Below, one piece after another: positions 6,128 through 57,596 of a stretch of 64,000 bases of DNA. The notes beneath the pieces are model-generated. The model had not been told where the DNA came from and ran no database searches. It saw only the letters and a list, made by a program, of their open reading frames with translations. Numbering within the stretch: position 1 is the first letter of the stretch; every line of letters starts with the position of its first letter. The DNA is from Candidatus Lokiarchaeum ossiferum. Lineage in GTDB: Archaea > Asgardarchaeota > Lokiarchaeia > Sigyniarchaeales > Promethearchaeaceae. The position numbers were made by a program, and so were the translations under genes. The stretch spans positions 3,233,121 to 3,297,120 of the forward strand of contig CP104013.1 of the NCBI GenBank assembly GCA_025839675.1, written 5' to 3'.

Positions 6128-6235
6128 ACAAAAAACCCAAGTTTACTAATCATTGGCTCCTAAAAATATTTTAAATCAATTCCCCTAATTAAGCATATAG
6201 CAATTTAGTATCGAAAAAAAAAACAGTGAAATCTA

Positions 6236-23200: not shown

Positions 23201-23418
23201 TCAAAAGCAAAATTCCAATTTTCTATAATGGCAAATTCATTTATAAAGATTAAGTTCTCAATTGATTTCAATTCTGATATGGAAAGTTGTTTTTGTTCAT
23301 TAAAATTATTGTAAATTTGCTTTTCTTTAATTATCTGGAACATTTTTATTTCTTCAGACTCATTTTTCAAATTTAAAATTTTAAAATTTTCAGCTTCCAT
23401 CTGGATTTTCTCCATCAT
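20203..23418 (-). CDS. SF2 DExH helicase (Ski2/Hel308-like core), HamB-like candidate
   Basis: Motif I LPTSSGKTLIA, Ia IVPTRTLVNQ, II IIDEAHNIG (DEAH), V ISTTTIVAGINFP and VI NLTGRVGR. An N-terminal region of about 330 aa and a C-terminal region of about 330 aa lack recognisable helicase motifs. The start overlaps the upstream gene's stop by 29 nt. Confidence 0.6.
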   Translation of the reverse strand: MMEKIQMEAENFKILNLKNESEEIKMFQIIKEKQIYNNFNEQKQLSISELKSIENLIFINEFAIIENWNFAFETKDERNVEKEKFSKLCFDQFKLMETLPIPEKPLRKIKFIIKLASYAYLGEKWEDIQRYLTKNESKIIFNLDEEEKWDKKLFYTIFHSFFYLIKKNTWEDLSKSIDMIVELRKNQHEFERNYLDNKPENQKFQSAHELASLYHLAKSTELISLYLTHGKPPNIIETLEFHKKNSLIHSEKGQLQDLNYLQRLIHLTYKKMIFNSIWYTANRINSRFSKYANILTNPESSKPIYEFMYPQRIALLEQGLLNPVSKAIVVNLPTSSGKTLIAKFRILQALNQFAEEKGWIAYIVPTRTLVNQVTNDLRRDLSIEPLSIKVEKMSGALEIDSFEDNLINQRNFFDILVTTPEKFSLLVRQDIEKNLQRNLVLTIIDEAHNIGDETRGLNLELLLSVIMRDCPKNRFLLLTPFIPNNHQIAEWLDPQNPRSIKIQMDWQPNQSIIGLYSIEGSKRNVSSYFEPKITSDKKIKIKSKIKLSEETHSKYPFSKYKNTKYILSSYIAQKVIEKKKNNENIIITVKTKDSTWKLAEELYQVLPKKKKNSANTSLVMNYISDEISEKFPLIKLLEKGIGIHHAGLPDEIRYLMEWLMKNNDLSILISTTTIVAGINFPVSSIIMASYSYPYKTMPASDFMNLTGRVGRIYQSIIGTVGIIVTNDKEKIKASKFIHESIKAIISILVKMVNEFIALGENKELQDFTYLPEWSTFAQYISHMYNQADSLSNFLSNLEITLNSTYGYRQLEEEKKEVLLEAVEKYVMKLDKNKGIAKLSDLTGFCPETIKKTLKSVKDKNLKEIDWTSSHIFSSESGVLADMVGIMIDKIPEISQDLNSIKADEFRQGSYIASIINDWVGGKKIDEISNLHFSGIDINSITKCISVIYSKIINLSTWGLSSIQKLTYNDKDRQLMSIDEQRKLSNLPAMIYYGVNTDEGILMRINNVPRTIANRIGKIYCKSNKKIYDVNSYEVVNWLSDLESSKWIDPKKKSKMKGEDYKNLWKILNGKK

Positions 23419-31693: not shown

Positions 31694-31792
31694 TTATTCC
31701 AAGGAAAAGACCAATGTGGTAGGATGATGAGCCAAAGGTTCCAGTATGGAACAATGCTCAAGGTAGAAGGGGAAATAGGAGGGATTGGGCAT
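31694..31792 (-). pseudogene. 5' stub of the PIN-like cassette gene (MPNPSYFPFYLEHCSILEPLAHHPTT...*)
   Basis: The first 25 residues align with MPPFAEFPFCLENCHVLEPLPHHPKV of 36374..37102. The frame stops after 32 codons. Confidence 0.4.
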
Positions 31793-31870
31793 GAATCACC
31801 ACTTTATTTTAAAGGATTATAAAAAGATCACCATTGTGACAGTTATTCTTCCATTTTGAGATCCTTAAAT
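31787..31870. promoter_or_regulatory. Conserved divergent promoter/leader module, copy A (partial)
   Basis: gggcatgaatca...attataaaaagatcaccattgtgacag, the same block as at 37098, 41036 and 45001. Confidence 0.5.
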
Positions 31871-32861: not shown

Positions 32862-33530
32862 TTGGAAACATTCACCCCAAGTTGGGAAAATTATTACTAT
32901 CGATTTTTCGATGGCTTAGGATATGATGTTGTTCATGTATATACAGGATATACTCGAAATCAGTTTTATAATGAACTTTATCAATGGACACCTCTCATTC
33001 AATGGGATGATGAATTGTTTATTATGATCCAAGGGCACGGGCTTGTGATGGATGATGAAGAAGAGACACCTTTACCGTATTTTACTCTCTATGATGGAGA
33101 TACTTTATATAATGGAGATAATGGTGAAATTTCAGGACAAGACTTCATAAATCGATTGATGTTATTTAGTGCTTTGAGGAAATGTGTATTTTTTGATACT
33201 TGCTATGCTGGAAAAGTGTTAGAAAGTTTTAATTCCGAAATTACCAAAGTTTTTCAAACTACTGATGCTACTCATGCAGCTGTGATGACATGCACTTATT
33301 ATGATGAAGCAATCGAAAATGCAAAATGGGAGAAAAGAAATACTCGGTTGGCAATTTTTTTTTTCCAAACTTTGAGTGCAACAACTTTAAGTGAGGATGG
33401 AATCTTCAATTATTTTCAGTTAGAACTAGCTTTAGAATCGTTATTACCATGGAATGATTTTTGTTACCAAGGAGGCACAATTCTGAATCCAGGTTGGAAT
33501 TTTTTGACTAAATATGGAATGTTATCATAA
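32862..33530 (+). CDS. Stand-alone caspase-like (clan CD-type His/Cys dyad) peptidase-domain protein
   Basis: A hydrophobic strand plus QGHG (LFIMIQGHG), then about 57 aa later a hydrophobic strand plus DxCxAG (KCVFFDTCYAG). About 80% identical to the C-terminal 220 aa of 41250..44498. Confidence 0.5.
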   Translation: METFTPSWENYYYRFFDGLGYDVVHVYTGYTRNQFYNELYQWTPLIQWDDELFIMIQGHGLVMDDEEETPLPYFTLYDGDTLYNGDNGEISGQDFINRLMLFSALRKCVFFDTCYAGKVLESFNSEITKVFQTTDATHAAVMTCTYYDEAIENAKWEKRNTRLAIFFFQTLSATTLSEDGIFNYFQLELALESLLPWNDFCYQGGTILNPGWNFLTKYGMLS

Positions 33531-33558: not shown

Positions 33559-33891
33559 CTATTTTTTTTTTTTAATAGCATTTTTTAATTCCCCAAAGGA
33601 GGTTTCTTTTCGCTTGTTATCATACCAACGTAAACTCCCAGTAAATCTTGACCCATGGTACCAAGTATCTAATAACTTTTTTCCTCCCAGTAAGTGGTCC
33701 CATGATTTTAGTATTTTTAATTCTTTTACGGTTCTTTTAGCAATGCATGAGTTACAGAAATAGATAGGAAGCGAAAAATAAGGGGTGTTTTCCGATGTTT
33801 GTTCGTTTACCGTGATAAATGGGTCCATATCAGTATACCATCTATGGCAAAAGTAGCATAGATTTTTGGAAGGTTCCTCATTTTTGACCAT
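33559..33891 (-). CDS. Small CxxC...CxxC zinc-binding protein. The start is probably the internal Met (MVKNEEPSKN), not the track's 33984.
   Basis: Aligns with paralog 44526..44864 from MMAKNKVPSKNLCYICQQW. The track's N-terminal 31 aa overlap the decayed PIN-like stub. Confidence 0.4.
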   Translation of the reverse strand: MVKNEEPSKNLCYFCHRWYTDMDPFITVNEQTSENTPYFSLPIYFCNSCIAKRTVKELKILKSWDHLLGGKKLLDTWYHGSRFTGSLRWYDNKRKETSFGELKNAIKKKK

Positions 33892-33959
33892 CAATACTAA
33901 TAAGATGGGTTGACAATTGAATTTTTTGGAGAATTTAGGATGCTCAAATAGGCATGAAC

Positions 33960-34187
33960 CTAAAAGATGTTGTTCATGAAACACCCGTAGTGTTGTTCAT
34001 CGAGAGCAAACTTCGCCGACGGGACCGAAAGGGTAAAAAGTTCCTGGAATGTGGATGGGAGGACATTCAATCCATGAAGAAAATCCACGGTGGTCGGATG
34101 GTGATCTAAGGATTCCAGCATGTGACAATTCTCGCTGTCCGTTAAATGTTCTGTGGGGCAGGAGCCACCGTGATCTACCTGTGGCAA
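33960..34187 (-). pseudogene. Decayed N-terminal fragment of the PIN-like cassette gene
   Basis: DSENCHMLESLDHHPTTVDFLHGLNVLPSTFQELFTLSVPSAKFALDEQHYG aligns with LENCHVLEPLPHHPKVVDFLRGLNVPPRILPDLYTLSVPAAKLALYEQHYG. The stretch is GC-rich like the intact gene and is truncated at 75 aa. Confidence 0.45.
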
Positions 34188-34563
34188 GCCGATTTCTTCA
34201 TGTAGTGGTATCCGACGATGCCGATCTTGATCGAAAGAAATCGTTTCCCTATCATCGCATCAAGAGTCCTTCTTCTCTTCAAGCGAGAAATACTATGAAA
34301 GCGGTTTCATTACCCCGATCGACCCTTATTGGTTTTTTTGAATCCGTCCACAATCGATCAATCAAACTTCCGTTTCCCTTATCGGTAAGCTATCTTCCGT
34401 GATTGCAATAATGCCATCATGGGAGCAGTTTTTTTTATTTTATAATTCAATGTATTTTTTATACAGAAAATTCTGGTTAATTGTATTTTTGATTCAGTTA
34501 ATTTAAATATTTAGTGTATAATATAGTCATAAGAAAGGGGTTGAAGGGAATCTCCCCCTTTTT

Positions 34564-35442
34564 TTGAAGGTATACAAAATGAACGAAAACCGATTGAAAA
34601 CTAAAAATACAATAACGCCTTTGCTAGGCTTTGTATTTTTATTTCTCCTGCTTGCAGGACAATTTTCCGAAGGAAATGCCGCCTATCAACCTCCGGTGGA
34701 ACCTCCTGAAGTAAATTTGAATGCGCCGTCTACCGTCATCGCGGGAACCTCCTTTACTGCCTCTATCTATATCCAAAATTATCCCGGAAGCAGTTATGGG
34801 TATGTTCAATGTTATGAAAATGGTGTATGGCAAAATGTCAAACGAGTTACGATCTCCTCGTCCCATGTGAGTGTGAGTCTTCCGACGAGCCCATACTATG
34901 AAAGATCAGTTTTATATCGCGTAAGGTATCGGGCTCCTTCTCGTTGGATTTACAGTAATACGGATAGCGTCAAAATTAATTTTGGTAGAACAATGTATCT
35001 TGAAGGACGAACTTGGGAAAAACAAATTCGTGATCAAAGCGGATTAAATGATTATTATGCGAGTGAATCCCATCACTACACTTGGGCTGCAAATACCAAT
35101 GAAATTTCGGTGAGTACTACTGGGATAAATTATAACAGGTTTATTGGAATGTCCACAACTTTTGTCGCTCAAAGCACGAGTATTCGAATTGACTTCGATT
35201 CCAAAGAATCGACGAACAAATATAGCGGAGTAGGCCAATATTCAATTATTTATGATCTCGATTGGGAAGTTGTTGGTTGGCTCTACTTTAGCGATTCCAC
35301 TTCCTATACTCATCACACTCACTTGTTTACAGAATTAGATGTAGGACAATCCTACTACTATTTTCATGCAAGTCGCGATAATTCCGTTTATCAAGGGTTC
35401 ACAATTACTTCCAAGAATTTTGTGTTGGATTTAACCCCTTAA
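34564..35442 (+). CDS. Secreted beta-rich protein, tandem paralog 1
   Basis: Signal peptide. AAYQPPVEPPEVNLNA...IQNYPGSSYG...RWIYSNTDSV...FVAQSTSI is shared with the next gene. Confidence 0.45.
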   Translation: MKVYKMNENRLKTKNTITPLLGFVFLFLLLAGQFSEGNAAYQPPVEPPEVNLNAPSTVIAGTSFTASIYIQNYPGSSYGYVQCYENGVWQNVKRVTISSSHVSVSLPTSPYYERSVLYRVRYRAPSRWIYSNTDSVKINFGRTMYLEGRTWEKQIRDQSGLNDYYASESHHYTWAANTNEISVSTTGINYNRFIGMSTTFVAQSTSIRIDFDSKESTNKYSGVGQYSIIYDLDWEVVGWLYFSDSTSYTHHTHLFTELDVGQSYYYFHASRDNSVYQGFTITSKNFVLDLTP

Positions 35443-35446
35443 ATAA

Positions 35447-36349
35447 TTGGAGGAACAAACAATGACAAAAACAAATTTAAGCAAATCAAAAACGATGATT
35501 CGTGTCCTAGGAACTTTAGTGGTGTTCATGACTCTATTTGGGGAAATGTCGGGGGTTTTAGCTGCCTACCAACCTCCCGAAGAACCTCCGGAAGTGAATT
35601 TTAATGCTGCATCCTCCGTCGAAGCGGGAAAGACTTTTTCCGCAACCGTAGCAATTCAGAATTATCCTGGAAGTAGTTATGGAAATGTTCAACGATATGA
35701 GAGTGGGACCTGGCGAAATGTAAAAAGTGTGAGTTTTTCATCCTCCTACATGACTATCAGTGGAATCCCAAGTCATACTTTTCAAGGATCCGCTTCCTAT
35801 CGATTAAAATATCGTCATAATGGACGATGGATTTATAGTAATTCTGACAGTGTGAATGCCTATTTCGGAAGAATTATGTATGTGGATGGAATTGCTTGGA
35901 CCAAAGAAGTACGGGATCTTTGGGGTTGTTTTGATTATTATGCGACTGATGCTTCCAAGGTAGATTGGACCGTGTCGGGGAATGAAATACGAGTCGAACA
36001 AGTCTCCTATTCTGGTAGAACTTTTGGAATGTCCACGAATTTTGTTGCCCAAAGTACAAGTGTCAAAATCAGCGTTGATGAGCGAAGTACCTGCTATCCA
36101 GGGTATGCATTGACCCCGGCGGTTCGTGTATATAAATCAAATTGGGGCTATCCCATCGTTAACAATGAACATCCTATTATCGATAAAGAATATTTCACCC
36201 AGTCAAGTAATTACGTCTACTCAGAAAAAATCCTTTCAGGTTTAACAGTAGGTGAAACATACAATATCTATCTTTGTTATCAAGATACTCATGGGTACGT
36301 GGATTTTACCATGTATTTCAAGAACATAGTGATTGACACTACGCCCTAA
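35447..36349 (+). CDS. Secreted beta-rich protein, tandem paralog 2
   Basis: AAYQPPEEPPEVNFNA...IQNYPGSSYG...RWIYSNSDSV...FVAQSTSV. Confidence 0.45.
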   Translation: MEEQTMTKTNLSKSKTMIRVLGTLVVFMTLFGEMSGVLAAYQPPEEPPEVNFNAASSVEAGKTFSATVAIQNYPGSSYGNVQRYESGTWRNVKSVSFSSSYMTISGIPSHTFQGSASYRLKYRHNGRWIYSNSDSVNAYFGRIMYVDGIAWTKEVRDLWGCFDYYATDASKVDWTVSGNEIRVEQVSYSGRTFGMSTNFVAQSTSVKISVDERSTCYPGYALTPAVRVYKSNWGYPIVNNEHPIIDKEYFTQSSNYVYSEKILSGLTVGETYNIYLCYQDTHGYVDFTMYFKNIVIDTTP

Positions 36350-36373
36350 GAGAAATTCTTACTTTCCCTTTTT

Positions 36374-37102
36374 TTAATAATTTTCGACCATGCGTTCCCA
36401 CTTCGTTTTCCTAGGATATTTGGATTGTATTAGAGTCTTTTGGCGCGCTTTTCGTTTCCGACGTGCCTTTCCACTTTCAAAACGACCAAAATCTTCCACA
36501 AACACGGCGATGTCCGTTTCCTTTACCTGATAGGAAGGAGTTTTAAGCGAGGACGGAAGAGCCGATCGATCAAATTTCCGATGATAGACCCGCCCCATCT
36601 CCTCTAAAATATTCGCTGAGAGAATGAAGGTCACACTCGGATTGGATGTAAACATCTGTCGAATCCGCTCCCGTTGTGATCGCTGGTGATCACAAAAATG
36701 CAGCAGGATATTGGAATCGATCAAAACCATTGCATCCGCGGGTAAGTTGGCAATGTCTTCGGGCCAATAGGCTTCATAGTCCAAAAATTCCCGGAGGTTG
36801 ATCAACAGATGATGATCCAAAGACGCCACCCCCCATTGGTTTTCGGCGGCCAGATAGGCCACGATCCAATCATCCACCCCAAAGGCCAAGGGACGATAAG
36901 GATGTTGTTCTTGAATAACCCCGTAATGTTGCTCATAGAGGGCTAACTTTGCGGCAGGCACCGAGAGCGTATAGAGGTCAGGAAGAATTCGTGGAGGTAC
37001 ATTTAAACCTCGGAGAAAATCTACAACCTTCGGATGATGGGGGAGAGGCTCCAACACATGACAATTTTCGAGACAGAAGGGAAACTCGGCAAAGGGGGGC
37101 AT
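36374..37102 (-). CDS. PIN-like nuclease-domain protein with an unknown N-terminal domain and a basic tail. This is the intact copy of the cassette gene.
   Basis: The C-terminal half has the PIN-like acidic quartet: VLIDSNILL (D), ILEEMG (E), ETDIAVF (D), VEDFGRF (D). The tail is RRKRKARQK. The gene looks markedly GC-richer by eye than its surroundings. Confidence 0.35.
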   Translation of the reverse strand: MPPFAEFPFCLENCHVLEPLPHHPKVVDFLRGLNVPPRILPDLYTLSVPAAKLALYEQHYGVIQEQHPYRPLAFGVDDWIVAYLAAENQWGVASLDHHLLINLREFLDYEAYWPEDIANLPADAMVLIDSNILLHFCDHQRSQRERIRQMFTSNPSVTFILSANILEEMGRVYHRKFDRSALPSSLKTPSYQVKETDIAVFVEDFGRFESGKARRKRKARQKTLIQSKYPRKTKWERMVENY

Positions 37103-37270
37103 GAATCATCTTTTGGTTTCTAAGAAACTATAAAAAGATCACGATTGTGACAGAATTGAGATTTGCGAGTGGTTTTTATAGATCAAAAGCAGTAGTATGG
37201 ATGTAACCATTTGAATACAAAAGGATGAAATGACAAAAGTGGCATTCAAACTTTAGTCCACATCTCTTTA
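37098..37270. promoter_or_regulatory. Conserved divergent promoter/leader module, copy B
   Basis: A TATA-like ctataaaaag (37128) abuts the dyad tcacgattgtga. An oppositely oriented ggtttttatag (37171) follows. The conserved leader ends about 85 bp before the ATG at 37356. Confidence 0.5.
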
Positions 37271-37355
37271 AGACCTAAGGATAATTTTCAGAAAATGTAT
37301 TCGAAACTGGAAACATGAAATTACTAATAACGCAAAACCAAAAAGTGAAAAAAAT

Positions 37356-40300
37356 ATGAAACCAAAAAAATTAATCTTCATCTTTTTTGTAGGAATCCTC
37401 ATGGTCCCCATCTTCCCCCAAGCGCAACTTTCCTTCGCAAGTGCAACGGTGGGTCAAAGTAATGGAGTCTGGGAAATAACCTATAATACTGATGATAGTG
37501 CAAATGTTGGTCCACTCTATGATGCCAACGGATATACTGCAATTTCCGAGTTAGATCCTGCAAGTTCAACCAATACATGGTACGATTATTCCCCATTAGA
37601 AGCAGGACATCAAGAATTAGACTTTGAATGCAATATCAAATTTGAAAATGGAGGTCGGAAACACATTTATCTGTATTTGGATAACGATCCCTCCCAATAT
37701 TTCCTACTGCAATATGAAAATGGGGATGTGTTTTCATACACTACAGATAATTGGGTAAAACAAAGCCAAAATATGGATTATAGTTATAATACTTGGCTGT
37801 CGTTTCAGTTAGAACTGATTCAAACCAGCTCCACCACAAAATTATTAACCGTAACTTTAGGAACCGATTCTTTTTCGATCGAACTGGATAGTGACAGTAC
37901 TGTTGACGCACTCAAAATGCGCACAATGACGGCCGGAAGTTCCGTCTTCTTTTCTGACGTCGAAGTGTCTTATTTGGAGGAATCCTGGCAAAGAATTTAT
38001 CCTGCGGAAAGCTCTGCATCTGCAATACCCCTTAATGATGAAACGGACGATGGACAGCTGTATTCAGATATTTATGAATTGGAGATGGACGTGGGACTGA
38101 ATACGTGGTATGAATATACCAAATCGGGAATTGAATACAATTTCTTGCATTTTGATTGCAATTTGAAATTTCTGGATGGAGGAGCTAGAAAATGGTATTT
38201 TTATTTTGATGATGGGGCTTATTTCATTATCAACTTCGAAAATCAATGGATCAGATCATATGTTTCGAATGCTGACGTGCCAAACTGGGTTTCTCAGAGG
38301 TCTTACGGCTATGGGGATTGGAATCATATCGAATTTGATATCGTTCAAAAGAATTCTGTAACGAAAGAATTAAAAATGAGCATAAATGGGCTCCCATTTA
38401 CTTATCCTGTCCTTATGTCTAGTGGATTCAATGTGAAAATTGAATACTTAAGAGTGCGTCTTCAAACTAGCGGAAGTCTTTTGATTTCCGATATGGCAGT
38501 CGATAATGATCAGGATGGATTGGATGAGGTTGAGGAAGCTATGCTAGGGTCTGATCCTCTCCTTAAAGATACTGATGGCGATTTTGCTTATGATGGGGAA
38601 GAAGCCTCTATCTATGGAACGGATCCAACGGTTCCCGATGAGGCAAATGGTTTTACACTGATCTATCCAGAAGGTGGTCCAGGCAGAGTTGATATTTCCA
38701 CAGATTCATCTACCGGTTCAAAGATATATCAGCTAAATTCGGAAGGTTCATCTAATACTTGGTTTCAACATCGATTGAATGGCCTAAGAGCTCAATCTGT
38801 CGGATTTCATTGTAAAATAAAAGTGCATGATTCTCAAGAAAAATACTTGTACTTCTATTTTGACGATGGTGATTATTTCATAGTTCGATTTATTAATCTA
38901 CATCTCTATACCACCTATATTCATAATGGGGTTGGCAACGGGTGGAGGGATCAGTATATTTATTATGGGGACCAGGATTGGTTGGATTTATCAATCACTA
39001 TTACTGGAGGACCCAATATCAAAACATTAGATGGATCTTTAGATGGAAATCCCTTTGATGATTCCGAATTCATGTATTCGAAAGGTGTTTTTGACAAGCT
39101 TAAAACCCGCCAAACTGGAACGGATAATTTGTGGAGTTTCACGGAGTTTATGATTGATTCGGATTTGGATGAGTTATCTGATGTAGAGGAACTTGATTTA
39201 GGCACCGACCCGACGGATGCGGATTCGGATGGGGATGGGTTAACCGATGGAGAAGAAGTCAATAATCATGGCACTAACCCTCTAGTGGCGGATTCGGATG
39301 GTGATAAATTTTCTGATCTCCTCGAAATTCGTGGGAAATTAAATCCTATGGATCCCAGCGATGTATTTACAGATGAATGCACCCTTGGAGGTTATGTTCC
39401 AAGCGAATGGGTGATTCCAAGCTCAGATGTGGGCATCCAAGCAATACCAAATGATTGGGATGATACTAGTTATTTAAGCGACAATTTTATGCTCTCTATC
39501 AGTCCCACATATCGGCACGATTCTCGCAGTATAGAAATTCCATTACAACAACTAGATGTCATGGAAAATTTTGCATTTTCATGTTATGTTGGGCAAAATT
39601 GGTTAGGAGGTGAAGAATCATGGCAAATTTATATTAAAGATACTTCAGGAAAAGGTTTTGCTTTGAACTATAAAGGTGATCAATTCTACATTAGTGATAC
39701 TACACTTCTTTCTTTCAGCTCGGATATTATTCAAGTACCTAATCCAAATAAAATTATGCATGAAATGAGGATAACCTTAAAATTTGTTGGCGATCATACC
39801 GATATTTTCCTATATTTTGCAGATACTTCAATGGGTAACTACTCCATCGAGATGGGAAAAATGTTATCCAAAATCATTGTTACTCGAACAACGACTTTTA
39901 ATACTCCTGAGATACCCTCCTTTGGATTTGATAATTTTAAAATAATCCAATGGAAATGGCCTTATTATAAATTGATGGAAACTTATCCTTCTAATGAAGG
40001 GAGAGATGGGCATTTAACCATTAATAACGTCCAAAAAGGCGTTGGTAAAGGACCTGGGTTCTATGAAATAATGTCCTCTGTCGATTTTGATCGGAATTGG
40101 AATGATGATGGTTTGGAAGGGATGCACTTGGATGGTTCTTTTTGTGATACAGGTTCCTTCAATTTTGTTTCTCATGCAAAATTATTTGATATATTCGGGA
40201 CTGGAATTACCCAACCTCAATCAAGTATAACTAAAATGGAACTTGATTTAAAGATCAATGGTCCTGATGGTCCTATCGATTTATCTACAGCAAATGGAAT

Positions 40301-40841
40301 CAGTAATCTAATAGATCCATACTTAATTAACATGATTGAAAATTTGGACACTATTACAGATTTAAATGAGGTTACTGAAATTCTTGAAGGAGTTGGGACA
40401 CTCTACCAAGTAACAGAACAATTATTAGATATGTATGATACCGTACCTGAATCACTTCAAGATGTTTTGGGACCAATTTCCCTGGTTATGGATCTTGTGG
40501 GTTTTTATTCTGAGGAAAATACACCACATCCCGAGTGGACTTGTGATACATTAGATAATGATCCTTATACCTATCAAGTCAAATATGACTTTGATTTCGT
40601 ATCTGGAGTTTCTTGGGGTAGTACAAATTTTGCTATGGGATTTAATTTAAATTTTTACGAAGTAATTGAACATCTTGAAGAAACAATGGATATTGGTGAC
40701 AGATACACTTTTACGATAACTCAAAGAACATTCTTGACTGGGATTTCCTATAATTGGATCTTTGGAAGATGGGAAGAATCCACAGAAATTATGGTTGAAG
40801 ATACTTTTAAATTTGAACTCACATCCACCGATTCTTTTTAG
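37356..40841 (+). CDS. Giant secreted protein with three roughly 190-aa jelly-roll/LamG-like repeats separated by Ca-binding DxDxDG (TSP3-like) linkers
   Basis: Signal peptide MKPKKLIFIFFVGILMVPIF. Internal repeats carry NTWY.Y...FDCNLKF..GG.K.Y.YFDDG.YF. DTDGDF, DSDGDGLTDGEE and DSDGDKFSD motifs. Confidence 0.55.
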   Translation: MKPKKLIFIFFVGILMVPIFPQAQLSFASATVGQSNGVWEITYNTDDSANVGPLYDANGYTAISELDPASSTNTWYDYSPLEAGHQELDFECNIKFENGGRKHIYLYLDNDPSQYFLLQYENGDVFSYTTDNWVKQSQNMDYSYNTWLSFQLELIQTSSTTKLLTVTLGTDSFSIELDSDSTVDALKMRTMTAGSSVFFSDVEVSYLEESWQRIYPAESSASAIPLNDETDDGQLYSDIYELEMDVGLNTWYEYTKSGIEYNFLHFDCNLKFLDGGARKWYFYFDDGAYFIINFENQWIRSYVSNADVPNWVSQRSYGYGDWNHIEFDIVQKNSVTKELKMSINGLPFTYPVLMSSGFNVKIEYLRVRLQTSGSLLISDMAVDNDQDGLDEVEEAMLGSDPLLKDTDGDFAYDGEEASIYGTDPTVPDEANGFTLIYPEGGPGRVDISTDSSTGSKIYQLNSEGSSNTWFQHRLNGLRAQSVGFHCKIKVHDSQEKYLYFYFDDGDYFIVRFINLHLYTTYIHNGVGNGWRDQYIYYGDQDWLDLSITITGGPNIKTLDGSLDGNPFDDSEFMYSKGVFDKLKTRQTGTDNLWSFTEFMIDSDLDELSDVEELDLGTDPTDADSDGDGLTDGEEVNNHGTNPLVADSDGDKFSDLLEIRGKLNPMDPSDVFTDECTLGGYVPSEWVIPSSDVGIQAIPNDWDDTSYLSDNFMLSISPTYRHDSRSIEIPLQQLDVMENFAFSCYVGQNWLGGEESWQIYIKDTSGKGFALNYKGDQFYISDTTLLSFSSDIIQVPNPNKIMHEMRITLKFVGDHTDIFLYFADTSMGNYSIEMGKMLSKIIVTRTTTFNTPEIPSFGFDNFKIIQWKWPYYKLMETYPSNEGRDGHLTINNVQKGVGKGPGFYEIMSSVDFDRNWNDDGLEGMHLDGSFCDTGSFNFVSHAKLFDIFGTGITQPQSSITKMELDLKINGPDGPIDLSTANGISNLIDPYLINMIENLDTITDLNEVTEILEGVGTLYQVTEQLLDMYDTVPESLQDVLGPISLVMDLVGFYSEENTPHPEWTCDTLDNDPYTYQVKYDFDFVSGVSWGSTNFAMGFNLNFYEVIEHLEETMDIGDRYTFTITQRTFLTGISYNWIFGRWEESTEIMVEDTFKFELTSTDSF

Positions 40842-41035
40842 ATTTTTATTGCTTTTTTTTTCTCAGGCTATAAGTATATTTTTTTTCTCATTTTTGATAA
40901 TATTTTCTTGATTTAAACGGAGAAAATATGAGTTATGAAATTTTGATGAAAATCAAGAAATTCTTTTCATTATGAAAACCCGAAAAATAAGAAGAAAAAC
41001 ATCTTTCCGAAACATCCATTGATATCTCATCAAGC

Positions 41036-41190
41036 ACCTATAAAAAGATCACGATTGTGATAGTTGTGCAAATTGCGAGTGGTTTTTATAGATCAAAAGC
41101 AGTATTATGGATGTAACCATTTGAATACAAAAGGATAAATGGACAAAAGTGAGAAACCGATTTTTGTTCCACATCTCCTTAATAGTAATT
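41036..41190. promoter_or_regulatory. Conserved promoter/leader module, copy C (lacks the minus-gene stub)
   Basis: cctataaaaagatcacgattgtgatag...ggtttttatagatcaaaagcagtattatggatgtaaccatttgaatacaaaaggat. Confidence 0.5.
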
Positions 41191-41249: not shown

Positions 41250-44200
41250 ATGAATCAAAAAAAAAGACTGCTATCGTTATATGCGTTGCTTCTTTTGACC
41301 TGTTCCGCCTTAATATATACTAATATGGGAACTGGGGTCGCAGAAATCAATATTTCAGAATGGACAAATGTGCCAAATTATGGTCCTTCGGAATTATCCA
41401 ATTTCATGGATGAAGATCGAGGGGAGGTAATGAAAATATATGATGCCGGATGGGGATTAGTCCAAAAGGATATAATTCCGCAATATATTGCAGGAAACAA
41501 AATTTGGTATTCCTATTGCGTGAAAGTAACTGGTGGGGAATCGAATGATTATGGGGGGGTGAATTTAAGCCCATCTACCATCAACACTGGGGCCGTAGGA
41601 ATGCGAATTCATGCGGGAACGAGTTTAAAATATTGGCTTGGAGATGGACAAGAGCATGATACATTCATTGACGTAGAAACAGATCAATGGTACCACATAG
41701 GATGTTCATATGAGTCTGATGGTCAATTCGAAGCATATTTGGATGGGGAGATGATCCTTTCAGAACAAGCCAAGCCTATCAGCAATTTAAATTATGTTTA
41801 TGCTGCAACATGCTCCCAATCAACTTTTCTGGATGATATCTATGTTGGAGTTTCTAAGGATGAAGCATTTAATAGTTTCCAAGATGAAGTAACTACCATA
41901 CTAATTGATGATTTTTCGGAAGATTCGATTGGGTTTTTACCCTTAGATTGGGAACTAACTGCAGGCGGATATTCATCTTTTAGAACTGTAGAACTAGCCG
42001 AATCTCCATATGATCAGGTTTTAAGAATCTATGATTATGGACAAATTCCCACCGTATACTCAAAAGTGGAAAAAAAAATTCCCGCTGGTTTTGGATCTAT
42101 TGAATGGGATTTAAAAACAGATTCACCAGGAAATAATAATGGTTATTTCGGATTGATGGAAGGGGATAATTGGTTGATATCGATTGGGATAATAAATAAT
42201 CAATTCAGAGTTTATTACCACAATGATCATGCTTCGTATAGTGTCTACGACACAAACGTTGTTGCTTCAAATCAATGGACCCACCTTAAAATGGAGTATG
42301 ATGGCGAGCAAGATGATTGTCGAATATTTGTTAATGGGGTTGAGGTAAGAAGTACACCATTCAATACAAAATATGCCTCTTTTGTTGATGGTCTATATTT
42401 ACACTCAGGAGAAACTGGATCTGGAAAAAGTTATTATGACAACATTCAAGTGAACTGGGTAAAACAGCGTGTGGATTCTTTTATGGAATATGCTGGCATT
42501 ATCAATTTTGATGATAGTTACAATCAAGATCCTCTAGCAAGCTGTCAAGAATGGTCTTCCGATGTTAATTCGGGCTATCAAATCCTAGATGCAGTGACCA
42601 CACACTCAAGTGTATTGGCAATAACCGATTTAGTTTCTTCTTCGAGCTGCTTTACAAAACTAAACATTAATACTCCTTTAGGGGTTGGAGGCTGTGTAGA
42701 AGGATGGATATCTGGATCGAGTATCATAAATAATGCGTATATGGGCATTAATTTTGGGGATAATTACTGGTTATTGTCCGTGGGGATCAATAATGGTCAT
42801 TTTAAAGTTTATCATCGAACGAGCTATTCAACATATAGTACCGCTGTTTCTACCATAGAAGCAAATCCAAATCAATGGTATTTTGTTTGTTTATATTATG
42901 ATGGTATGTCTGATATTTGTACTGTATCGATAAATGGTGTTACTATTGGACAATATAGTCTTTATGACGTTGCTGGAATTACATCAATATATCTCCATTC
43001 GGGAGAAAATGGGGGGGGTACAAGTTACTATGACTCAATTTCGTATGATTGGGCAAATGAATATGATGCAGGAGATGCAAGAATAATAGACTTCGATAGG
43101 GACCATTTAAGCCACAAGTATGAAGAGACCCATATTTATGAATCTGGATTAAAAACTTCTCCTTGGAAATGTGATTCTGATAATGATAGGGTAAATGATT
43201 GGGATGAAATCTGTGGTATCTACGGATATATTACTGATCCAACTCGGATTGACTCTGAACCGATTGGATCTGAAGATGGGCTGAATGATTATTTAGAATT
43301 ATTTAGATATCATACCGATCCAACTCACTATGATTCTGACCGTGATGGGCTGACTGATGGAGATGAAGTCAACTTATATGGCACCGACCCGACCACGGCG
43401 GATTCGGATGGGGATGGGTTGACCGATGGGGAAGAAATAAATGGGTATGATATGATGTATCTAGACGAGCTTTATCATGAACATAAATATGCAACATATT
43501 ATACAAATCCGCTTCTTGTTGATTCAGATAATGATAATTGGAGTGATAAGCAAGAACTTGATTTGATACAAGCTGATTTAGATCAAATTCATGAACCTAA
43601 TCCTGCGGTAGATAACTATCGGTATTTAGATCCAATGTGCCGAGATAGTGATTTAGATTTTCTTCCCGATGGATGGGAAGAATATTATGGACTCGATCCT
43701 TGTGAATATAATTCAGAGCTGGAATTAATCGAAAACAATGTTCCTGATATATATTATTTCTTTGCGCCAATTCAAGAACCAGATCAAGAACGGGTCTCGG
43801 GATTGCGAATTGCCTTGATATTCATTAATCCAGACATAGTTTCGCCAAGTTGGGCAAATTATTACTCTCGAGTCTTCGATAAGCTAAATTATGATGTAGT
43901 GCATGTTTATACAGGTTACACCCGAAATCAGTTTTATAATGAATTGTATCAGTGGACACCCCTTATTCAAGCGGATGATGAATTATTTATAATGATCCAA
44001 GGACATGGGCTGGTGGAGGACAATGAAGAAGAAACTCCGTTGGCGTATTTCACTCTTTATGATGACGATGAGGTGTTTGACCAGGATGTTGGTGAAATTT
44101 CGGGACAAGAGTTTTTAAATCGATTGAAGTTATTTAGTGCCTACAGGAAATGTGTGTTTTTTGATACCTGTTTCGCTGGAAAAGTGCTTGAAAATTTCGA

Positions 44201-44498
44201 TTCGGAAATAACTAAAGTCTTTCAAACTACTGATGCCACCCACGCACAGTATAGAACAGTCAGCAAATTTGATAAGATTATGCAGAATGCTAAGTGGGAG
44301 AAAAGAAATACTTATGTTGCATCATTTTTCTGGGATACTTTAGGTGCAACCACTCTAAGTGAAGATCCAATTTTCAAATATATTCAGGCGGATTTGGCAT
44401 TTGGTTCTCTTTTACCGTGGAGTCGAACGGGTTATCAAGGAGGAACTATTTTGAATCCGGGCTGGAATTATTTGGAACGTTATAATATATTTGTCTAA
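41250..44498 (+). CDS. Giant secreted LamG/jelly-roll protein with TSP3-like Ca-binding repeats and a C-terminal caspase-like peptidase domain
   Basis: Signal peptide. WYHIGCSYESDG.FEAYLDGEMI is LamG_3-like. DSDGDGLTDGEE is present. The C-terminus has LFIMIQGHG ... KCVFFDTCFAG. Confidence 0.55.
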   Translation: MNQKKRLLSLYALLLLTCSALIYTNMGTGVAEINISEWTNVPNYGPSELSNFMDEDRGEVMKIYDAGWGLVQKDIIPQYIAGNKIWYSYCVKVTGGESNDYGGVNLSPSTINTGAVGMRIHAGTSLKYWLGDGQEHDTFIDVETDQWYHIGCSYESDGQFEAYLDGEMILSEQAKPISNLNYVYAATCSQSTFLDDIYVGVSKDEAFNSFQDEVTTILIDDFSEDSIGFLPLDWELTAGGYSSFRTVELAESPYDQVLRIYDYGQIPTVYSKVEKKIPAGFGSIEWDLKTDSPGNNNGYFGLMEGDNWLISIGIINNQFRVYYHNDHASYSVYDTNVVASNQWTHLKMEYDGEQDDCRIFVNGVEVRSTPFNTKYASFVDGLYLHSGETGSGKSYYDNIQVNWVKQRVDSFMEYAGIINFDDSYNQDPLASCQEWSSDVNSGYQILDAVTTHSSVLAITDLVSSSSCFTKLNINTPLGVGGCVEGWISGSSIINNAYMGINFGDNYWLLSVGINNGHFKVYHRTSYSTYSTAVSTIEANPNQWYFVCLYYDGMSDICTVSINGVTIGQYSLYDVAGITSIYLHSGENGGGTSYYDSISYDWANEYDAGDARIIDFDRDHLSHKYEETHIYESGLKTSPWKCDSDNDRVNDWDEICGIYGYITDPTRIDSEPIGSEDGLNDYLELFRYHTDPTHYDSDRDGLTDGDEVNLYGTDPTTADSDGDGLTDGEEINGYDMMYLDELYHEHKYATYYTNPLLVDSDNDNWSDKQELDLIQADLDQIHEPNPAVDNYRYLDPMCRDSDLDFLPDGWEEYYGLDPCEYNSELELIENNVPDIYYFFAPIQEPDQERVSGLRIALIFINPDIVSPSWANYYSRVFDKLNYDVVHVYTGYTRNQFYNELYQWTPLIQADDELFIMIQGHGLVEDNEEETPLAYFTLYDDDEVFDQDVGEISGQEFLNRLKLFSAYRKCVFFDTCFAGKVLENFDSEITKVFQTTDATHAQYRTVSKFDKIMQNAKWEKRNTYVASFFWDTLGATTLSEDPIFKYIQADLAFGSLLPWSRTGYQGGTILNPGWNYLERYNIFV

Positions 44499-44934: not shown

Positions 44935-45006
44935 TTAGTTTATATTGATGATGAGCCGTAAATTCCAATTCTCGAGATCGAAGGGGACCTCGGAGGGGAG
45001 GGGCAT
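44935..45006 (-). pseudogene. 23-codon stub of the PIN-like cassette gene (MPLPSEVPFDLENWNLRLIININ*)
   Basis: Starts at the conserved gggcatgaatc position of module D. Aligns with MPPFAEFPFCLENCH. Confidence 0.35.
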
Positions 45007-45165
45007 GAATCGCCCTATGTTTTTGGGATGCTATAAAAAAAACTCGCTTGTGACAGAAGTGTAAATTTCGTGTGGTTTTTATAGATCAAAGTCAATATTA
45101 AGCATGTAGCCATTTGAATGCAAAAGGATGAAATGACAAAACTGGAATTCAAGCTATCGTCTTTG
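45001..45165. promoter_or_regulatory. Conserved divergent promoter/leader module, copy D (more diverged)
   Basis: gggcatgaatcgcc...gctataaaaaaaactcgcttgtgacag...gtggtttttatagatcaaag...catttgaatgcaaaaggatgaaatgacaaaa. Confidence 0.45.
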
Positions 45166-45230: not shown

Positions 45231-48029
45231 ATGTTGGATAAAAATAAAAAAGGCAAGAAGAAATTGTCCTTGGGATCTAAAATCGGAATGTGCCTCTTCA
45301 TTGTTGCGATGATCTCTACCAATAGCCCAAATCTGATAAAAAGCGCTTCAGCAATTTCCGTGAATGATTGGGAATTAAATCCTGAATGGGAAGGGTGGGA
45401 AGAGGATTCTACTCTTGGAAATCAATATACACGCGTCGCTGAATATTCAGATTTAGGCTCACGAGATCCGGTGTTGGGACTCCGCGATGGTTCCTATTAT
45501 GGAGAAGCGAAAATAAAGAATGAATTTCCCAACCAACCTGCGGGGGCTTTTTCCACCGAATTGAAAATCGTTGAAACCTCTTATGGAAATGAGGATTGTT
45601 CTTTTATTCGATTTTATTCAGGAACAACAATTGCTGCTGCTTTAATTATTGATAATAATTTTAGATATGCTCCTGACCAAGGAGTATCCGATGCCCCTAT
45701 AAGATCGATCAATGTGGAATTGGAGACGTGGTACCACTTTGCTGCTGAATGGAATAGTCAAGCAACTGGAACTAATGAGTGGACATTTTACATTAACGGT
45801 CAAATTATTGCTCAGTTCGATTCGACCAATCCGTTTTCAGGAATTAATAATATCACAATTAGTACATATCTTGGCGATATAACTCATAATCTGACCTTAC
45901 ATAACCTACGACATATGGATGATTCTTCCACAATTAACCAAATTTGGGAAGAAGATAAATTTTTTGAATGGACTAGCGGTGGGACGAATCAATGGTGTCA
46001 TATTTCGACTAACATTTTTGAAGATCGAAACGTGTTAAAACTAAACGATGGTTCATGGGTCGGGGAAGCAATCGCAACAGCGAACTTTGATTTATCCGAA
46101 AAGGGATCGTTTTCTACAAATATTCGAATTGTTGATTCTGGTTATGGAGAAACAGATTGTTTCCTAATTAGATTTCTCTCAGGATCGACTGTGAGCAGCT
46201 ATATGACCATGTGGGAAGATCAAGGTGTAAATACGATCAGATTTTGTGGATCTGACGGCAATTCTTACCCCACAGGATCAACATACTCTACTAATGTGTG
46301 GAATGATGATTTCAAAGCCGAATGGGATTGCTCAGGAAGTGGTAAAGACCAATGGGTTTTTTCTCTGGGAGGCACAGTAATAAAGACATTTGAATCTGAA
46401 AAATACACTTCAGGAATTAATCAAATTTCGATTCGCTCTTTATATAGCAAACCAACCAATTATGTCTATTTTAATGATATTCAAATCGATTCGGATGATG
46501 ATGGTCTATCACGTAAAGAAGAATTGCTCTTTGGCACCGACCCGACCACGGCGGATTCGGATGGGGATGGGCGCGAGGACGGGGTGGAGATTAGATATAT
46601 GACAAATCCTATAATAAATGAAGTCTTTTGGGAAGATTTTGAAGAAATTTCTTTACCAAGTGGATATATTGATAATGGAGATACTATCGGAGAGTGGCAA
46701 GTGGCTAAAGATAATGATGATTTTTGTGATCTATATGTCGATCAGAGTCCAAGCTATTGGGGAGAATCTTCTCAAGTTTTATGGCTTCATACTACTGATG
46801 AAAGTCTCATTGATATTTATAAAAATGATATCGCTTCATCTGGAGATAATTTGGTTTATTTTCGCTCCTCTATTAGTATAGGACAGCTTCAGTATCAACA
46901 GTTTTATGTTGATTTTACCTATGGAACTTCTTCACGCTTGCATTTTCTGTTTTCTAGTGGAGAATTATTTTTCTGGGATTCCTATTATATATATGGGAAA
47001 CACCTTACTGCTTATAAACCTGTATATGATGCAGCGAGCAATGTTGTTGTTTATAGTGAAGATCAAAAAATTGATTTCGAAGTATTCATTGATAAGGACC
47101 AATCCACTTGGACTCTGAAATGGAATGGACAAGCAATAATGAAGCAATATGATCTTGATTTTGGTAATACTTTTAATCGAGTGATTTTAGGCACACCATC
47201 AACATCTTCTGGACGAGTTTTTCTTGATGATCTCGTTTTTGAACATGGGAAAATCACTAAAGATGATTCGAAGACCTTATACAATAAAATAGTTCCGAAT
47301 ATAGTCGCCTGTTTACCTGGGTTCAATGAGGAATTCTCTGAAGATTCTATTGGCGATACTAGCCTTGTAGGATTAGAAATATCATCAATCGTTTCTCGAG
47401 ATACTGAGTATTCCTTCAATTTTCCTTTTGTTTCAGTTAGTTATGATGATGAAATTGAAACGGGTCCACATCATGATGAGGTTCGAACAATTGGTCAAGA
47501 ACATTGGTATTGGTACTATAAAATTTATGGAGATATTGAATTTTACTCAATCGACTTAACAGAGTATTCATATTCTGCTTCCTTTTTGGCATTTTATTCA
47601 TTTGACCCATATTCAACTCAAAACACCGTACTTACCAATCATCCCTATTCAGATCTCCGCGATGATTGCTCGTATTTAAATCAGGAAACATTTGATTATT
47701 GGGTCCAGCCATCATATACTTCTGAATACTCTTGTCCTCAACAATACACGGATTCTGGGAGTCAAACTCAAAAAGGATGGGATTACACCATTAGTAAACA
47801 AACCACATTAGGATTGAATTTTGAGTTATCCTTTGCCACACCAGTCCAATCAATTTCTCTTCCCCTTGGCATATCTTTTGCATTCAATGTTGAACGAGAT
47901 TTAGATTTCTGGTACTATCTGATATTGAAAGATACCCATACTTCTACTAAATCAGTAACTTATAATATGAATGCCAATGTAGCTAAAGGTTTTTATACTT
48001 TTTTTATTAGTGATTTTAAGATTCACTAA
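45231..48029 (+). CDS. Giant secreted LamG/jelly-roll surface protein with one TSP3-like Ca-binding motif
   Basis: Signal/anchor region (KIGMCLFIVAMISTNSP). Repeated ETDCFLIRF..G motifs. DSDDDG...DSDGDGREDG. Confidence 0.55.
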   Translation: MLDKNKKGKKKLSLGSKIGMCLFIVAMISTNSPNLIKSASAISVNDWELNPEWEGWEEDSTLGNQYTRVAEYSDLGSRDPVLGLRDGSYYGEAKIKNEFPNQPAGAFSTELKIVETSYGNEDCSFIRFYSGTTIAAALIIDNNFRYAPDQGVSDAPIRSINVELETWYHFAAEWNSQATGTNEWTFYINGQIIAQFDSTNPFSGINNITISTYLGDITHNLTLHNLRHMDDSSTINQIWEEDKFFEWTSGGTNQWCHISTNIFEDRNVLKLNDGSWVGEAIATANFDLSEKGSFSTNIRIVDSGYGETDCFLIRFLSGSTVSSYMTMWEDQGVNTIRFCGSDGNSYPTGSTYSTNVWNDDFKAEWDCSGSGKDQWVFSLGGTVIKTFESEKYTSGINQISIRSLYSKPTNYVYFNDIQIDSDDDGLSRKEELLFGTDPTTADSDGDGREDGVEIRYMTNPIINEVFWEDFEEISLPSGYIDNGDTIGEWQVAKDNDDFCDLYVDQSPSYWGESSQVLWLHTTDESLIDIYKNDIASSGDNLVYFRSSISIGQLQYQQFYVDFTYGTSSRLHFLFSSGELFFWDSYYIYGKHLTAYKPVYDAASNVVVYSEDQKIDFEVFIDKDQSTWTLKWNGQAIMKQYDLDFGNTFNRVILGTPSTSSGRVFLDDLVFEHGKITKDDSKTLYNKIVPNIVACLPGFNEEFSEDSIGDTSLVGLEISSIVSRDTEYSFNFPFVSVSYDDEIETGPHHDEVRTIGQEHWYWYYKIYGDIEFYSIDLTEYSYSASFLAFYSFDPYSTQNTVLTNHPYSDLRDDCSYLNQETFDYWVQPSYTSEYSCPQQYTDSGSQTQKGWDYTISKQTTLGLNFELSFATPVQSISLPLGISFAFNVERDLDFWYYLILKDTHTSTKSVTYNMNANVAKGFYTFFISDFKIH

Positions 48030-50124: not shown

Positions 50125-50589
50125 ATGAAAGACAAACAAAATGTAGGAAATTCTGGAGAATATTATATTGCAGCTTTCCTTTCTGCACGAAATTTTATAG
50201 TAACCATCACCCTAGGAAGAGCTATTGGCTATGATTTATTAGCGGTCAATCCAAGCGGAAAGTTAATCAAAATATCTGTAAAAACTCGCGATTCAAACTC
50301 AACTCATAGATTTGTGTTATCAGAAAAATCTGAGTCATTAAAATCCGAGGATCTGTTCTATGCATTTGTTAGAACGAATAAATTTGAATCTCTACCCGAT
50401 TTTTGGATGATTCCATCAAAAATTGTTGCTGAGCAAACATATAATAGCCATAAGAAATGGCTTCAAGAAGATAGCAATCACAAGGATAATACAATGCGAA
50501 CATTTTGGGTGAAAAATCATGATCTTTTCCCAAAGAATTGGGGAGAAACAATGGAGCAATATCATAATAGTTATTCTAGTTTGCTATAG
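50125..50589 (+). CDS. PD-(D/E)xK restriction-endonuclease-fold protein, Hjc-like
   Basis: GEYYIAAFLSARNFIV...GYDLLAVNPSGKLIKISVKTRD follows the Hjc pattern E...(P)DLIA...K.IEVKS, with S in place of the second acid. Confidence 0.35.
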   Translation: MKDKQNVGNSGEYYIAAFLSARNFIVTITLGRAIGYDLLAVNPSGKLIKISVKTRDSNSTHRFVLSEKSESLKSEDLFYAFVRTNKFESLPDFWMIPSKIVAEQTYNSHKKWLQEDSNHKDNTMRTFWVKNHDLFPKNWGETMEQYHNSYSSLL

Positions 50590-50840
50590 TTTTTTTTTAA
50601 GAATATTATCTCAGATAATGTTTTTTCATATTGATCATTCATAGAATGCAAGAAGAAATTGGATTTTTCCAAAGATAAAGAGGTCTGGAAAAAAAGTTGG
50701 ACTTCTTTTTTAGAATTTTTTCTCATTTTGAGGAAAAATTTCTTTCAGGGAAAATCTCAGTTCATCCTTTTGCATTCAATATTTGAACACTATTCATAGG
50801 GTGATATTTCTATTTAAACACCGTGGTAATAGCAAAATAA

Positions 50841-51107
50841 TCACTCATGTGATCTTTTTATATTTATCCATTGTTTCAAATCGAGCATATCTTCCTCGTA
50901 TTTTTCAACGAGAGTCCGATATTTCTTTTGATAGATGCGTTCGGGAAGCAAGCCAACACTCCGGAACAACAACATCATATTCAAAAATTCCAGTTTCATT
51001 TCAAACGGCCAACTATCGATGGGGTCATCCTTATAAACGGAGACTCGAGAGATCCCCGCCGATCCCAAGTTGATTTCAAAATGGCACTTTTTATGCGGTT
51101 TGTTCAC
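50841..51107 (-). CDS. Hypothetical protein. One of three mutually overlapping ORFs; the minus-strand one looks most protein-like.
   Basis: Balanced composition (MNKPHKKCHFEINLGSAG...KYRTLVEKYEEDMLDLKQW). The two overlapping plus-strand frames are low-complexity. Confidence 0.2.
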   Translation of the reverse strand: MNKPHKKCHFEINLGSAGISRVSVYKDDPIDSWPFEMKLEFLNMMLLFRSVGLLPERIYQKKYRTLVEKYEEDMLDLKQWINIKRSHE

Positions 51108-57295: not shown

Positions 57296-57455
57296 AATGT
57301 AGTCAACATATTTTTCTAAGATTCTTGCAAATTTTGAGAAAAAATATACTTCTTTTAATCATGTAGGCTTCAAAAATTAGTGACTACTTTGCATTTTGGT
57401 TTTGAACATATATATTATAGAAAAAAATCTATTTAAACTCGGTGGTGTTAGCAAA

Positions 57456-57488
57456 ACTGACACAATCATGATCTTTTTATAGATTCCT
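57456..57488 (-). promoter_or_regulatory. Cassette promoter motif on the minus strand (ggaatctataaaaagatcatgattgtgtcag)
   Basis: Reverse complement of the TATA-plus-dyad motif seen upstream of the plus-strand giant genes. Lies about 160 bp upstream of the ATG at 57295. Confidence 0.5.
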
Positions 57489-57596
57489 AGAACACAAAAT
57501 ACGCAAGAAGTTATATTACAAGATGAAAAAAATAGAAAATTTCATAGATATAATGGATGGAGAATGGAAAAATCGGTTTTAACGATTTTTTTTGAA

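Follow-up and report, generated by a model that had tools for sequence, protein, structure and literature searches.

The 64-kb stretch of DNA analysed here (the window, in whose coordinates all positions are given) belongs to “Candidatus Lokiarchaeum ossiferum” B-35, an Asgard archaeon, and carries on its minus strand at 36374-37102 the gene NEF87_002776, an intact open reading frame (ORF) for 242 amino acids (aa) that coincides with the GC maximum of the window. This gene probably encodes a circularly permuted PIN-like nuclease of a family confined to Lokiarchaeia. It is likely the one intact nuclease gene of an old array in which such genes shared promoters with secreted-protein genes and from which the other nuclease copies have been lost, and its high GC content would be of long standing and not a trace of recently acquired foreign DNA. 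Few nuclease folds are as abundant as the PIN domain, and a permuted version, of which the cultured “Ca. L. ossiferum” has three paralogues, offers an expressible target for work on how RNA is processed in those prokaryotes that are most closely related to eukaryotes. The family has been hidden by half-domain matches in Pfam and by a truncated RefSeq gene model.

Motif order and domain architecture of NEF87_002776

The product of NEF87_002776 matches UYP46491.1 exactly and is named ‘PIN domain-containing protein’ in UniRef. In comparison with its closest homologue (P0001, 63-65% identity), the proportion of nonsynonymous differences was low (pN 0.26) against saturated synonymous sites (pS 0.76), which argues for purifying selection; judged by this comparison, NEF87_002776 is a real gene maintained at the protein level. 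The RefSeq model WP_457916281.1 comprises 148 aa, begins at residue 95 and thus drops PIN motif 3 (D78) as well as S94. Its start looks wrong, since the 242-aa GenBank model aligns end to end with all homologues.

Only six columns are invariant in an alignment of 46 family members, i.e. D78, S94, D96, D129, N131, and E168. All four acidic motifs of PIN domains (D129-x-N131, E168, D78, and S94-x-D96) are also present in the window protein; their order along the chain is 3-4-1-2 and not the canonical 1-2-3-4. Motif 3 (D-x-x-LAY-AA) and motif 4 (V-x-S-x-D) precede motif 1 (LLDTNILL) and motif 2 (the Glu helix). Residues 33-117 (36752-37006, minus strand) are the counterpart of the C-terminal half in canonical PIN domains, with motif 3 (D78), motif 4 (S94-x-D96), and the last two strands, and residues 118-182 (36557-36751, minus strand) that of the N-terminal half, with motif 1 (D129-x-N131) and motif 2 (E168). 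The core would therefore read from residues ~43-119 (helix of the third Asp, T/S-x-D strand, last strand) across a short linker to residues 125-178, which would come last with the strand carrying D-x-N, two helices, a strand, and the Glu helix. The remaining residues 183-242 (36377-36556, minus strand) form a poorly ordered linker and a basic tail (FESGK-RRKRK ... KW) that is conserved among close homologues, with a predicted local distance difference test (pLDDT) score of 51-92 in the second structure model.

The permuted order is mirrored in the way profile models match the family. Pfam PIN models hit 35 of the 46 members at E ≤1, with PF01850 reaching up to 41.8 bits in distant members against a gathering score of 23.6. 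The match always covers model positions 1 to ~55 only and lies at the extreme C-terminus of the protein (e.g. 156-214 of 219 aa), leaving no room downstream for the second half of a PIN domain; in the window protein, it falls in residues 118-182. When a family profile in native order was compared to all PDB sequences, the N-terminal part mapped to the C-terminal half of solved PIN domains (1w8i 94-123, FitB 83-122, HARP 126-175) and the C-terminal part to their N-terminal half, with residues 33-117 aligning to residues 83-123 of the VapC, FitB, and HARP chains. For a re-permuted profile, the 43 sequences behind the native-order profile were reused residue for residue and rejoined as C-terminal part followed by N-terminal part. 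This profile was collinear with whole PIN domains (1w8i 3-123 at E 4.9e-5, VapC 2-111, FitB 1-122, VapC11 4-124), and 20 of its 21 PDB matches were PIN nucleases. Likewise, hhalign placed the re-permuted profile on AF_1683 with 89.8% probability over 112 columns, compared to 65.6% over 27 columns for the matched control in native order. Taken together, the half-domain matches, the cross-mapping in native order, the collinearity after re-permutation, and the hhalign comparison provide strong sequence evidence that the PIN-type domain of NEF87_002776 is circularly permuted.

PADLOC and PHROGs yielded no significant family for the window protein, phmmer with the single window sequence retrieved nothing relevant from the PDB, and a first, shallow structure model returned generic helicase-like matches only and no Foldseek match at E ≤0.001. 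A protein with a different three-layer alpha/beta domain (Rossmann-like or RecA-like), in which the PIN motif matches had arisen by convergence, is nonetheless highly improbable, as the six invariant residues are precisely those of the PIN catalytic motifs, Pfam PIN models exceed the gathering score in family members, the re-permuted profile runs collinear with entire PIN domains, and Walker motifs were not found in the window protein. The preliminary description of this DNA had proposed a PIN-like gene, which the motifs and family profiles corroborate; the circular permutation had escaped it. Since all four metal-binding acidic residues are kept, the protein is most likely a Mg2+/Mn2+-dependent endonuclease, with RNA as the probable substrate.

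The classification of the PIN-like superfamily from 2017 mentions no permuted form (PMC5499597), and a phrase search of ~8 million papers did not find ‘permuted PIN’. Within the limits of these searches, the family and its architecture are apparently undescribed.

Relatives, base composition and decayed copies

Searched exhaustively with a family profile, 1.84 billion cluster representatives yielded 45 proteins, and a search of 5.8 billion proteins retrieved four other close relatives of the window protein (50-65% identity, ~245 aa, aligned end to end). Every family member with an organism name belongs to Lokiarchaeota/Promethearchaeota, no match was found in viral and metagenome scans for the family, and no relatives were found among PHROGs. 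“Ca. L. ossiferum” itself encodes at least three permuted PIN paralogues (the window gene, P0003, and P0042). P0003 (NEF87_000089, 56% identical) and its orthologue P0004 share a conserved neighbourhood with acetyltransferases, RidA, and a succinyl-CoA-ligase-like gene, and show a host-like GC content at third codon positions (GC3; 0.31 and 0.28) and a ratio of nonsynonymous to synonymous substitution (dN/dS) of 0.13. The distant paralogue P0042 is located between genes for an M24 peptidase and a hemerythrin-like protein on one side and FlpD/Hdr-like genes on the other. This order of M24 peptidase, hemerythrin-like, permuted PIN, and FlpD/heterodisulfide-reductase-like genes recurs in three Lokiarchaeial genomes including “Ca. 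L. ossiferum” (permuted PIN gene at 6001-6732 of locus L007, 6001-6846 of L004, and 6001-6660 of L008), and the conserved synteny suggests a housekeeping role for the distant branch. The window gene and P0001, on the other hand, form a faster-evolving, GC-rich branch in non-syntenic, variable contexts, with large secreted proteins next to the window gene and leucine-rich repeat (LRR) proteins in locus L003; the locus of P0001 shares nothing but the nuclease gene with the window.

These neighbourhoods also bear on a possible role as VapC-type toxin in a toxin-antitoxin or defence module, where the unrecognised antitoxin would be either a small protein or antisense RNA transcribed from the divergent promoter. 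Such a selfish addiction element might explain why copies multiplied and decayed, and several decayed copies are indeed present (see below). Moreover, the best structural matches are VapC toxins, one distant family member carries the NCBI name ‘type II toxin-antitoxin system VapC family toxin’, and genes for CARF, PD-(D/E)XK, and helicase proteins lie nearby. However, no antitoxin-like small gene, either upstream or overlapping, was found in seven loci (the window, L001-L004, L007, and L008), two paralogue groups reside in conserved synteny with metabolic genes across genomes, PADLOC returned no match, and the window protein is permuted and ~100 aa longer than VapC toxins. We thus give a toxin function little credence; with no antitoxin-like partner in the seven loci, the family looks like stand-alone nucleases and not like VapBC toxins.

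The preliminary description had pointed to a GC-rich gene in AT-rich surroundings, and windowed GC and GC3 bear this out, as GC is far from uniform along the window. Its mean is 34.1%, and among the other ORFs of ≥150 aa (n = 37), GC averages 0.348 (standard deviation 0.035) and GC3 0.277 (standard deviation 0.050), compared to 0.476 and 0.481 in NEF87_002776 (z-scores of 3.7 and 4.1). The GC-richest 729-nt segment of the entire 64 kb starts at 36382, and only five places reach a GC content of ≥0.46 over 250 nt, two of them being 36383-37134 and 33921-34402. Rfam and tRNA scans of the window found neither Rfam families nor tRNAs, so structured RNA does not explain the GC peak.

Decayed sister copies next to a single intact one had been postulated as well, and BLAST together with a family-profile search of the six-frame translation of the window recovered three remnants and no others, all on the minus strand. 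Stub A (33963-34157) covers aa 4-68 (tblastn 67% identity, E 5e-18; profile E 1.6e-14); the identity of 67% holds over aa 12-62, a frameshift follows near aa 62, the start codon is lost, and the promoter has decayed. Stub B (31706-31792) corresponds to aa 1-29 (tblastn E 1.8e-4; profile E 0.003) and stub C (44966-45006) to approximately aa 1-14, followed by a 10-nt deletion and a frameshift; both retain the ATG inside GGGCATGAATC. At the nucleotide level, the similarity of stub C continues into the adjoining promoter, with 44966-45161 being 78% identical to 37062-37258 (blastn). The element gggcatgaatc with the start codon, in which the copies were said to keep their starts, is found in the intact gene (37097), stub B (31787), and stub C (45001), the latter two lying outside the region initially described; stub A, which lies inside it, no longer has its start. 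All three remnants are 5' ends, and the profile search of the six-frame translation found no 3' fragments of the nuclease gene anywhere in the window.

The stubs have retained a high GC content (0.46-0.58; 0.467 in stub A), and stub A differs from the intact copy at 11, 10, and 32 of 51 first, second, and third codon positions (p 6e-7). This excess at third positions indicates that stub A remained a functional paralogue during most of the time in which it diverged, and that the truncation came afterwards. Stub B shows a weaker tendency in the same direction (12, 7, and 17 of 29). The GC-rich fragment region reported earlier (33990-34400) is indeed GC-rich, yet homology to the nuclease gene is confined to 33963-34157. 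The adjoining stretch at 34158-34400 (GC 0.45) is not derived from the PIN gene, and comparison with the window, PHROGs, the family profile, and the fetched loci revealed no relative of it. A 141-aa ORF (33559-33984, minus strand) has its start within the frameshifted end of stub A and continues into unrelated AT-rich sequence; it matches no family and is perhaps spurious or chimeric. The GGCATGAACC at 33951 does not qualify as a fourth stub, since the local alignment was no better than shuffles, and this isolated 8-mer at the truncated 3' end of stub A, devoid of flanking similarity, is treated as chance.

The elevated GC had been attributed to horizontal acquisition, i.e. recent transfer from a GC-richer donor, spread of the gene together with the cassettes, and ongoing decay, with the GC excess as foreign composition that has not yet ameliorated. 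The GC3 z-score relative to the window genes, the variable contexts of the gene and its closest homologue, and the host-like GC of the syntenic paralogues fit such a scenario. What makes it unlikely is the age of the trait. The intact copy, P0001, and stub A are separated by saturated synonymous divergence (pS 0.76-0.86) and still have a GC3 of ~0.5 throughout; P0001 is equally GC-rich (GC 0.456, GC3 0.50) in an AT-rich contig whose other genes have a GC3 of 0.32-0.35; and stub A diverged under purifying selection, so that the array is old. The large genes adjoining the nuclease gene have a GC3 of 0.28-0.31, close to the window mean, and do not share its composition. Furthermore, the named relatives are Lokiarchaeial without exception and reveal no foreign lineage, and no link to viruses, PHROGs, defence libraries, or mobile elements was found in the searches. 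That both P0001 and the stubs remained GC-rich in spite of saturated synonymous sites points to an old, maintained subfamily trait and not to a recent import awaiting amelioration. The high GC content (GC3 ~0.5 in genomes of 32-37% GC) is thus probably a long-standing property of this nuclease subfamily. Codon- or mRNA-level selection might be its cause, or else GC-biased gene conversion at a repeat locus that recombines. Apart from this, a GC-rich gene with decayed copies amounts to ordinary gene-family turnover and is not evidence of foreign DNA, and the suggestion that the nuclease gene seeded the duplication of the cassettes is unsupported.

The repeated promoter module and the secreted-protein genes

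The stubs lie beside a promoter and leader module that occurs six times within 26 kb in a layout of TATA box, operator, and leader. The plus strand has TATA boxes at 31818, 37129, 41039, and 45032, the minus strand at 50849-50862 and 57457-57481. In each copy, TATAAAAA is followed directly by ATCAC-N4-GTGAY; a 25-nt motif of the module has five matches in the window against zero expected. A viral scan for the promoter motif gave no match, and the single motif match in the metagenome scan (L009) was dismissed as chance, as no other similarity accompanied it. Promoters of the TATA/BRE type (TATA box and B recognition element) are the relevant comparison because the organism is an Asgard archaeon.

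The copy next to the intact nuclease gene (m37, 37122-37271, plus strand) comprises a TATA box at 37129-37136, the operator ATCACGATTGTGAC at 37138-37151, an inverted TATA box at 37173-37180 that faces the PIN gene (TATAAAAA when read on the minus strand), and the ~90-nt leader of a gene for a 1161-aa protein. Its counterparts upstream of 41250 and 45231 are 85% and 78% identical, respectively. They are m41 (41032-41182, plus strand), which precedes a 1082-aa gene, has a perfect palindrome ATCAC-GATT-GTGAT, and lacks a PIN stub, and m45 (45007-45161, plus strand) in front of a 932-aa gene. All three have the second, inverted TATA box 36 bp further on, followed by the conserved leader of ~90 nt. 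In m31 (31793-31842, plus strand), the TATA box at 31818-31825 is accompanied by the operator ATCACCATTGTGAC, and homology stops directly after it. The two copies on the minus strand are m50 (50750-50870), an orphan that lacks a large gene downstream and contains the perfect palindrome ATCAC-ATGA-GTGAT, and m57 (57400-57490), located upstream of a 1208-aa gene. Perfect palindromes with conserved arms and different spacers in m41 and m50 (GATT and ATGA) argue for a protein-binding operator.

The conserved 5' leader of ~90 nt contains the box TGAATRCAAAAGGAT and extends over 37185-37271, 41095-41182, 45088-45161, and, on the minus strand, 50750-50800. RNAalifold predicted weak structure only for three of the leaders, dominated by the inverted TATA pair, and small ORFs in the leader were rejected by eye, since they are not conserved between copies.

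Four large genes follow the modules, at 37356-40841, 41250-44498, and 45231-48029 on the plus strand and at 53669-57295 on the minus strand. Their products have signal peptides, TSP3 repeats, and LamG domains (a TSP3 repeat in the 1161-aa protein encoded divergently from the PIN gene) and are barely similar to each other, having only short TSP3 and LamG stretches in common, as opposed to 78-85% identity between the modules. The module is a candidate regulon signal for large secreted proteins in “Ca. L. ossiferum”, an organism whose surface biology attracts broad attention. The preliminary description had placed each nuclease copy at the divergent promoter of a cassette for a giant protein. This holds for the intact gene, whose bidirectional promoter is shared with a large secreted-protein gene, and fails for stub A, which is followed by two secreted proteins of ~300 aa; as for ‘giant’, the proteins are large and secreted, with an actual size of 932-1208 aa.

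Combining these lines, we propose that the locus is an old array of units in which a permuted PIN gene and a secreted-protein gene would be read in opposite directions from a shared promoter. Transcription would proceed in both directions from one compact promoter (TATA box, palindromic operator ATCAC-N4-GTGAY, inverted TATA box), with the minus-strand TATA box serving the nuclease gene and the plus-strand TATA box the large secreted-protein gene. Nuclease copies other than NEF87_002776 seem to have been deleted from their 3' sides, so that the promoter-proximal 5' ends (14-68 codons) survive, and stub A would have been under protein-level constraint for most of its history before its 3' part was lost. 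The modules beside the stubs are probably conserved because they regulate the secreted-protein genes. Some points weigh against this reading. The window protein itself stays below every Pfam and NCBIfam threshold (best PIN_3, 16.5 bits vs. 27), and the Pfam match was not extended by re-permuting single sequences, as it still ends at the half-domain. We infer promoter function, start sites, and operator binding from archaeal promoter architecture, just as activity and substrate are deduced from the conserved residues. Finally, stubs B and C may be partial duplications that were never functional.

Going one step further, the nuclease might be a Lokiarchaeia-specific RNase that is co-regulated with the large surface proteins via the palindromic operator and cleaves their ~100-nt leaders while its own GC-rich mRNA is spared. 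This would imply post-transcriptional control of a surface-protein regulon by a GC-rich permuted PIN paralogue; we regard it as a long shot.

Several neighbouring genes complete the picture of the locus. Right of stub B, the product of a 222-aa ORF (32862-33530, plus strand) shares 73% identity with the last 219 aa of the 1082-aa protein (41250-44498), which marks this ORF as the remnant of a decayed cassette. In NCBIfam, the C-terminal region of the 1082-aa protein weakly matches an EACC1-associated caspase domain. The interval from stub A to the intact gene holds two tandem paralogous genes on the plus strand (34564-35442 and 35447-36349), which encode the secreted proteins of 292 and 300 aa, 41% identical to each other. 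Both have a YQPP-EPPEVN motif after the signal peptide, mildly raised GC (0.39-0.40), and no family assignment. Further away, a PD-(D/E)XK endonuclease-like ORF (50125-50589, plus strand), a CARF-domain protein (52385-53179, plus strand; Pfam HFX_2341_N, PADLOC CARF3), and a 1071-aa DEAD/ResIII helicase (20203-23418, minus strand) may constitute defence-island content.

Relation to known nucleases and promoters

The closest known relatives are VapC-type PIN nucleases (PF01850), e.g. AF_1683 (PDB 1w8i), Mycobacterium tuberculosis VapC21 (5sv2), VapC11 (6a7v), and FitB (2h1o). In comparison, the halves of the domain are swapped in the window family, which possesses an additional N-terminal element of ~40 aa and a basic tail of ~60 aa, lacks an antitoxin gene, and is covered by Pfam models over only half of its domain. 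HARP, the protein-only RNase P of the PIN_5 type (PDB 7e8j, 7og5), was the second-best profile match and aligned over motifs 2-4 with 25.4 bits after re-permutation. However, HARPs have the canonical motif order, assemble into dodecamers, and carry an insertion of their own, and the window family gives no indication of tRNA 5' processing. With Fcf1/Utp24 and Nob1, the PIN nucleases of pre-rRNA processing in archaea and eukaryotes, only the first PIN half aligns, at E 0.1 or worse, and PF04900 (Fcf1) matches a single one of the 46 family members (E 0.015). The window family differs from Nob1 in the absence of a zinc ribbon, and from both Fcf1 and Nob1 in its permuted order and its restriction to Lokiarchaeia.

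Archaea are known to have bidirectional TATA promoters in which an operator separates the TATA box from the start site. The module resembles them in its two inverted TATAAAAA boxes 36 bp apart and in the 5-4-5 palindrome directly after the plus-strand TATA box. What sets it apart is that the whole module, together with a leader of ~90 nt, is repeated six times in front of divergent genes for large secreted proteins.

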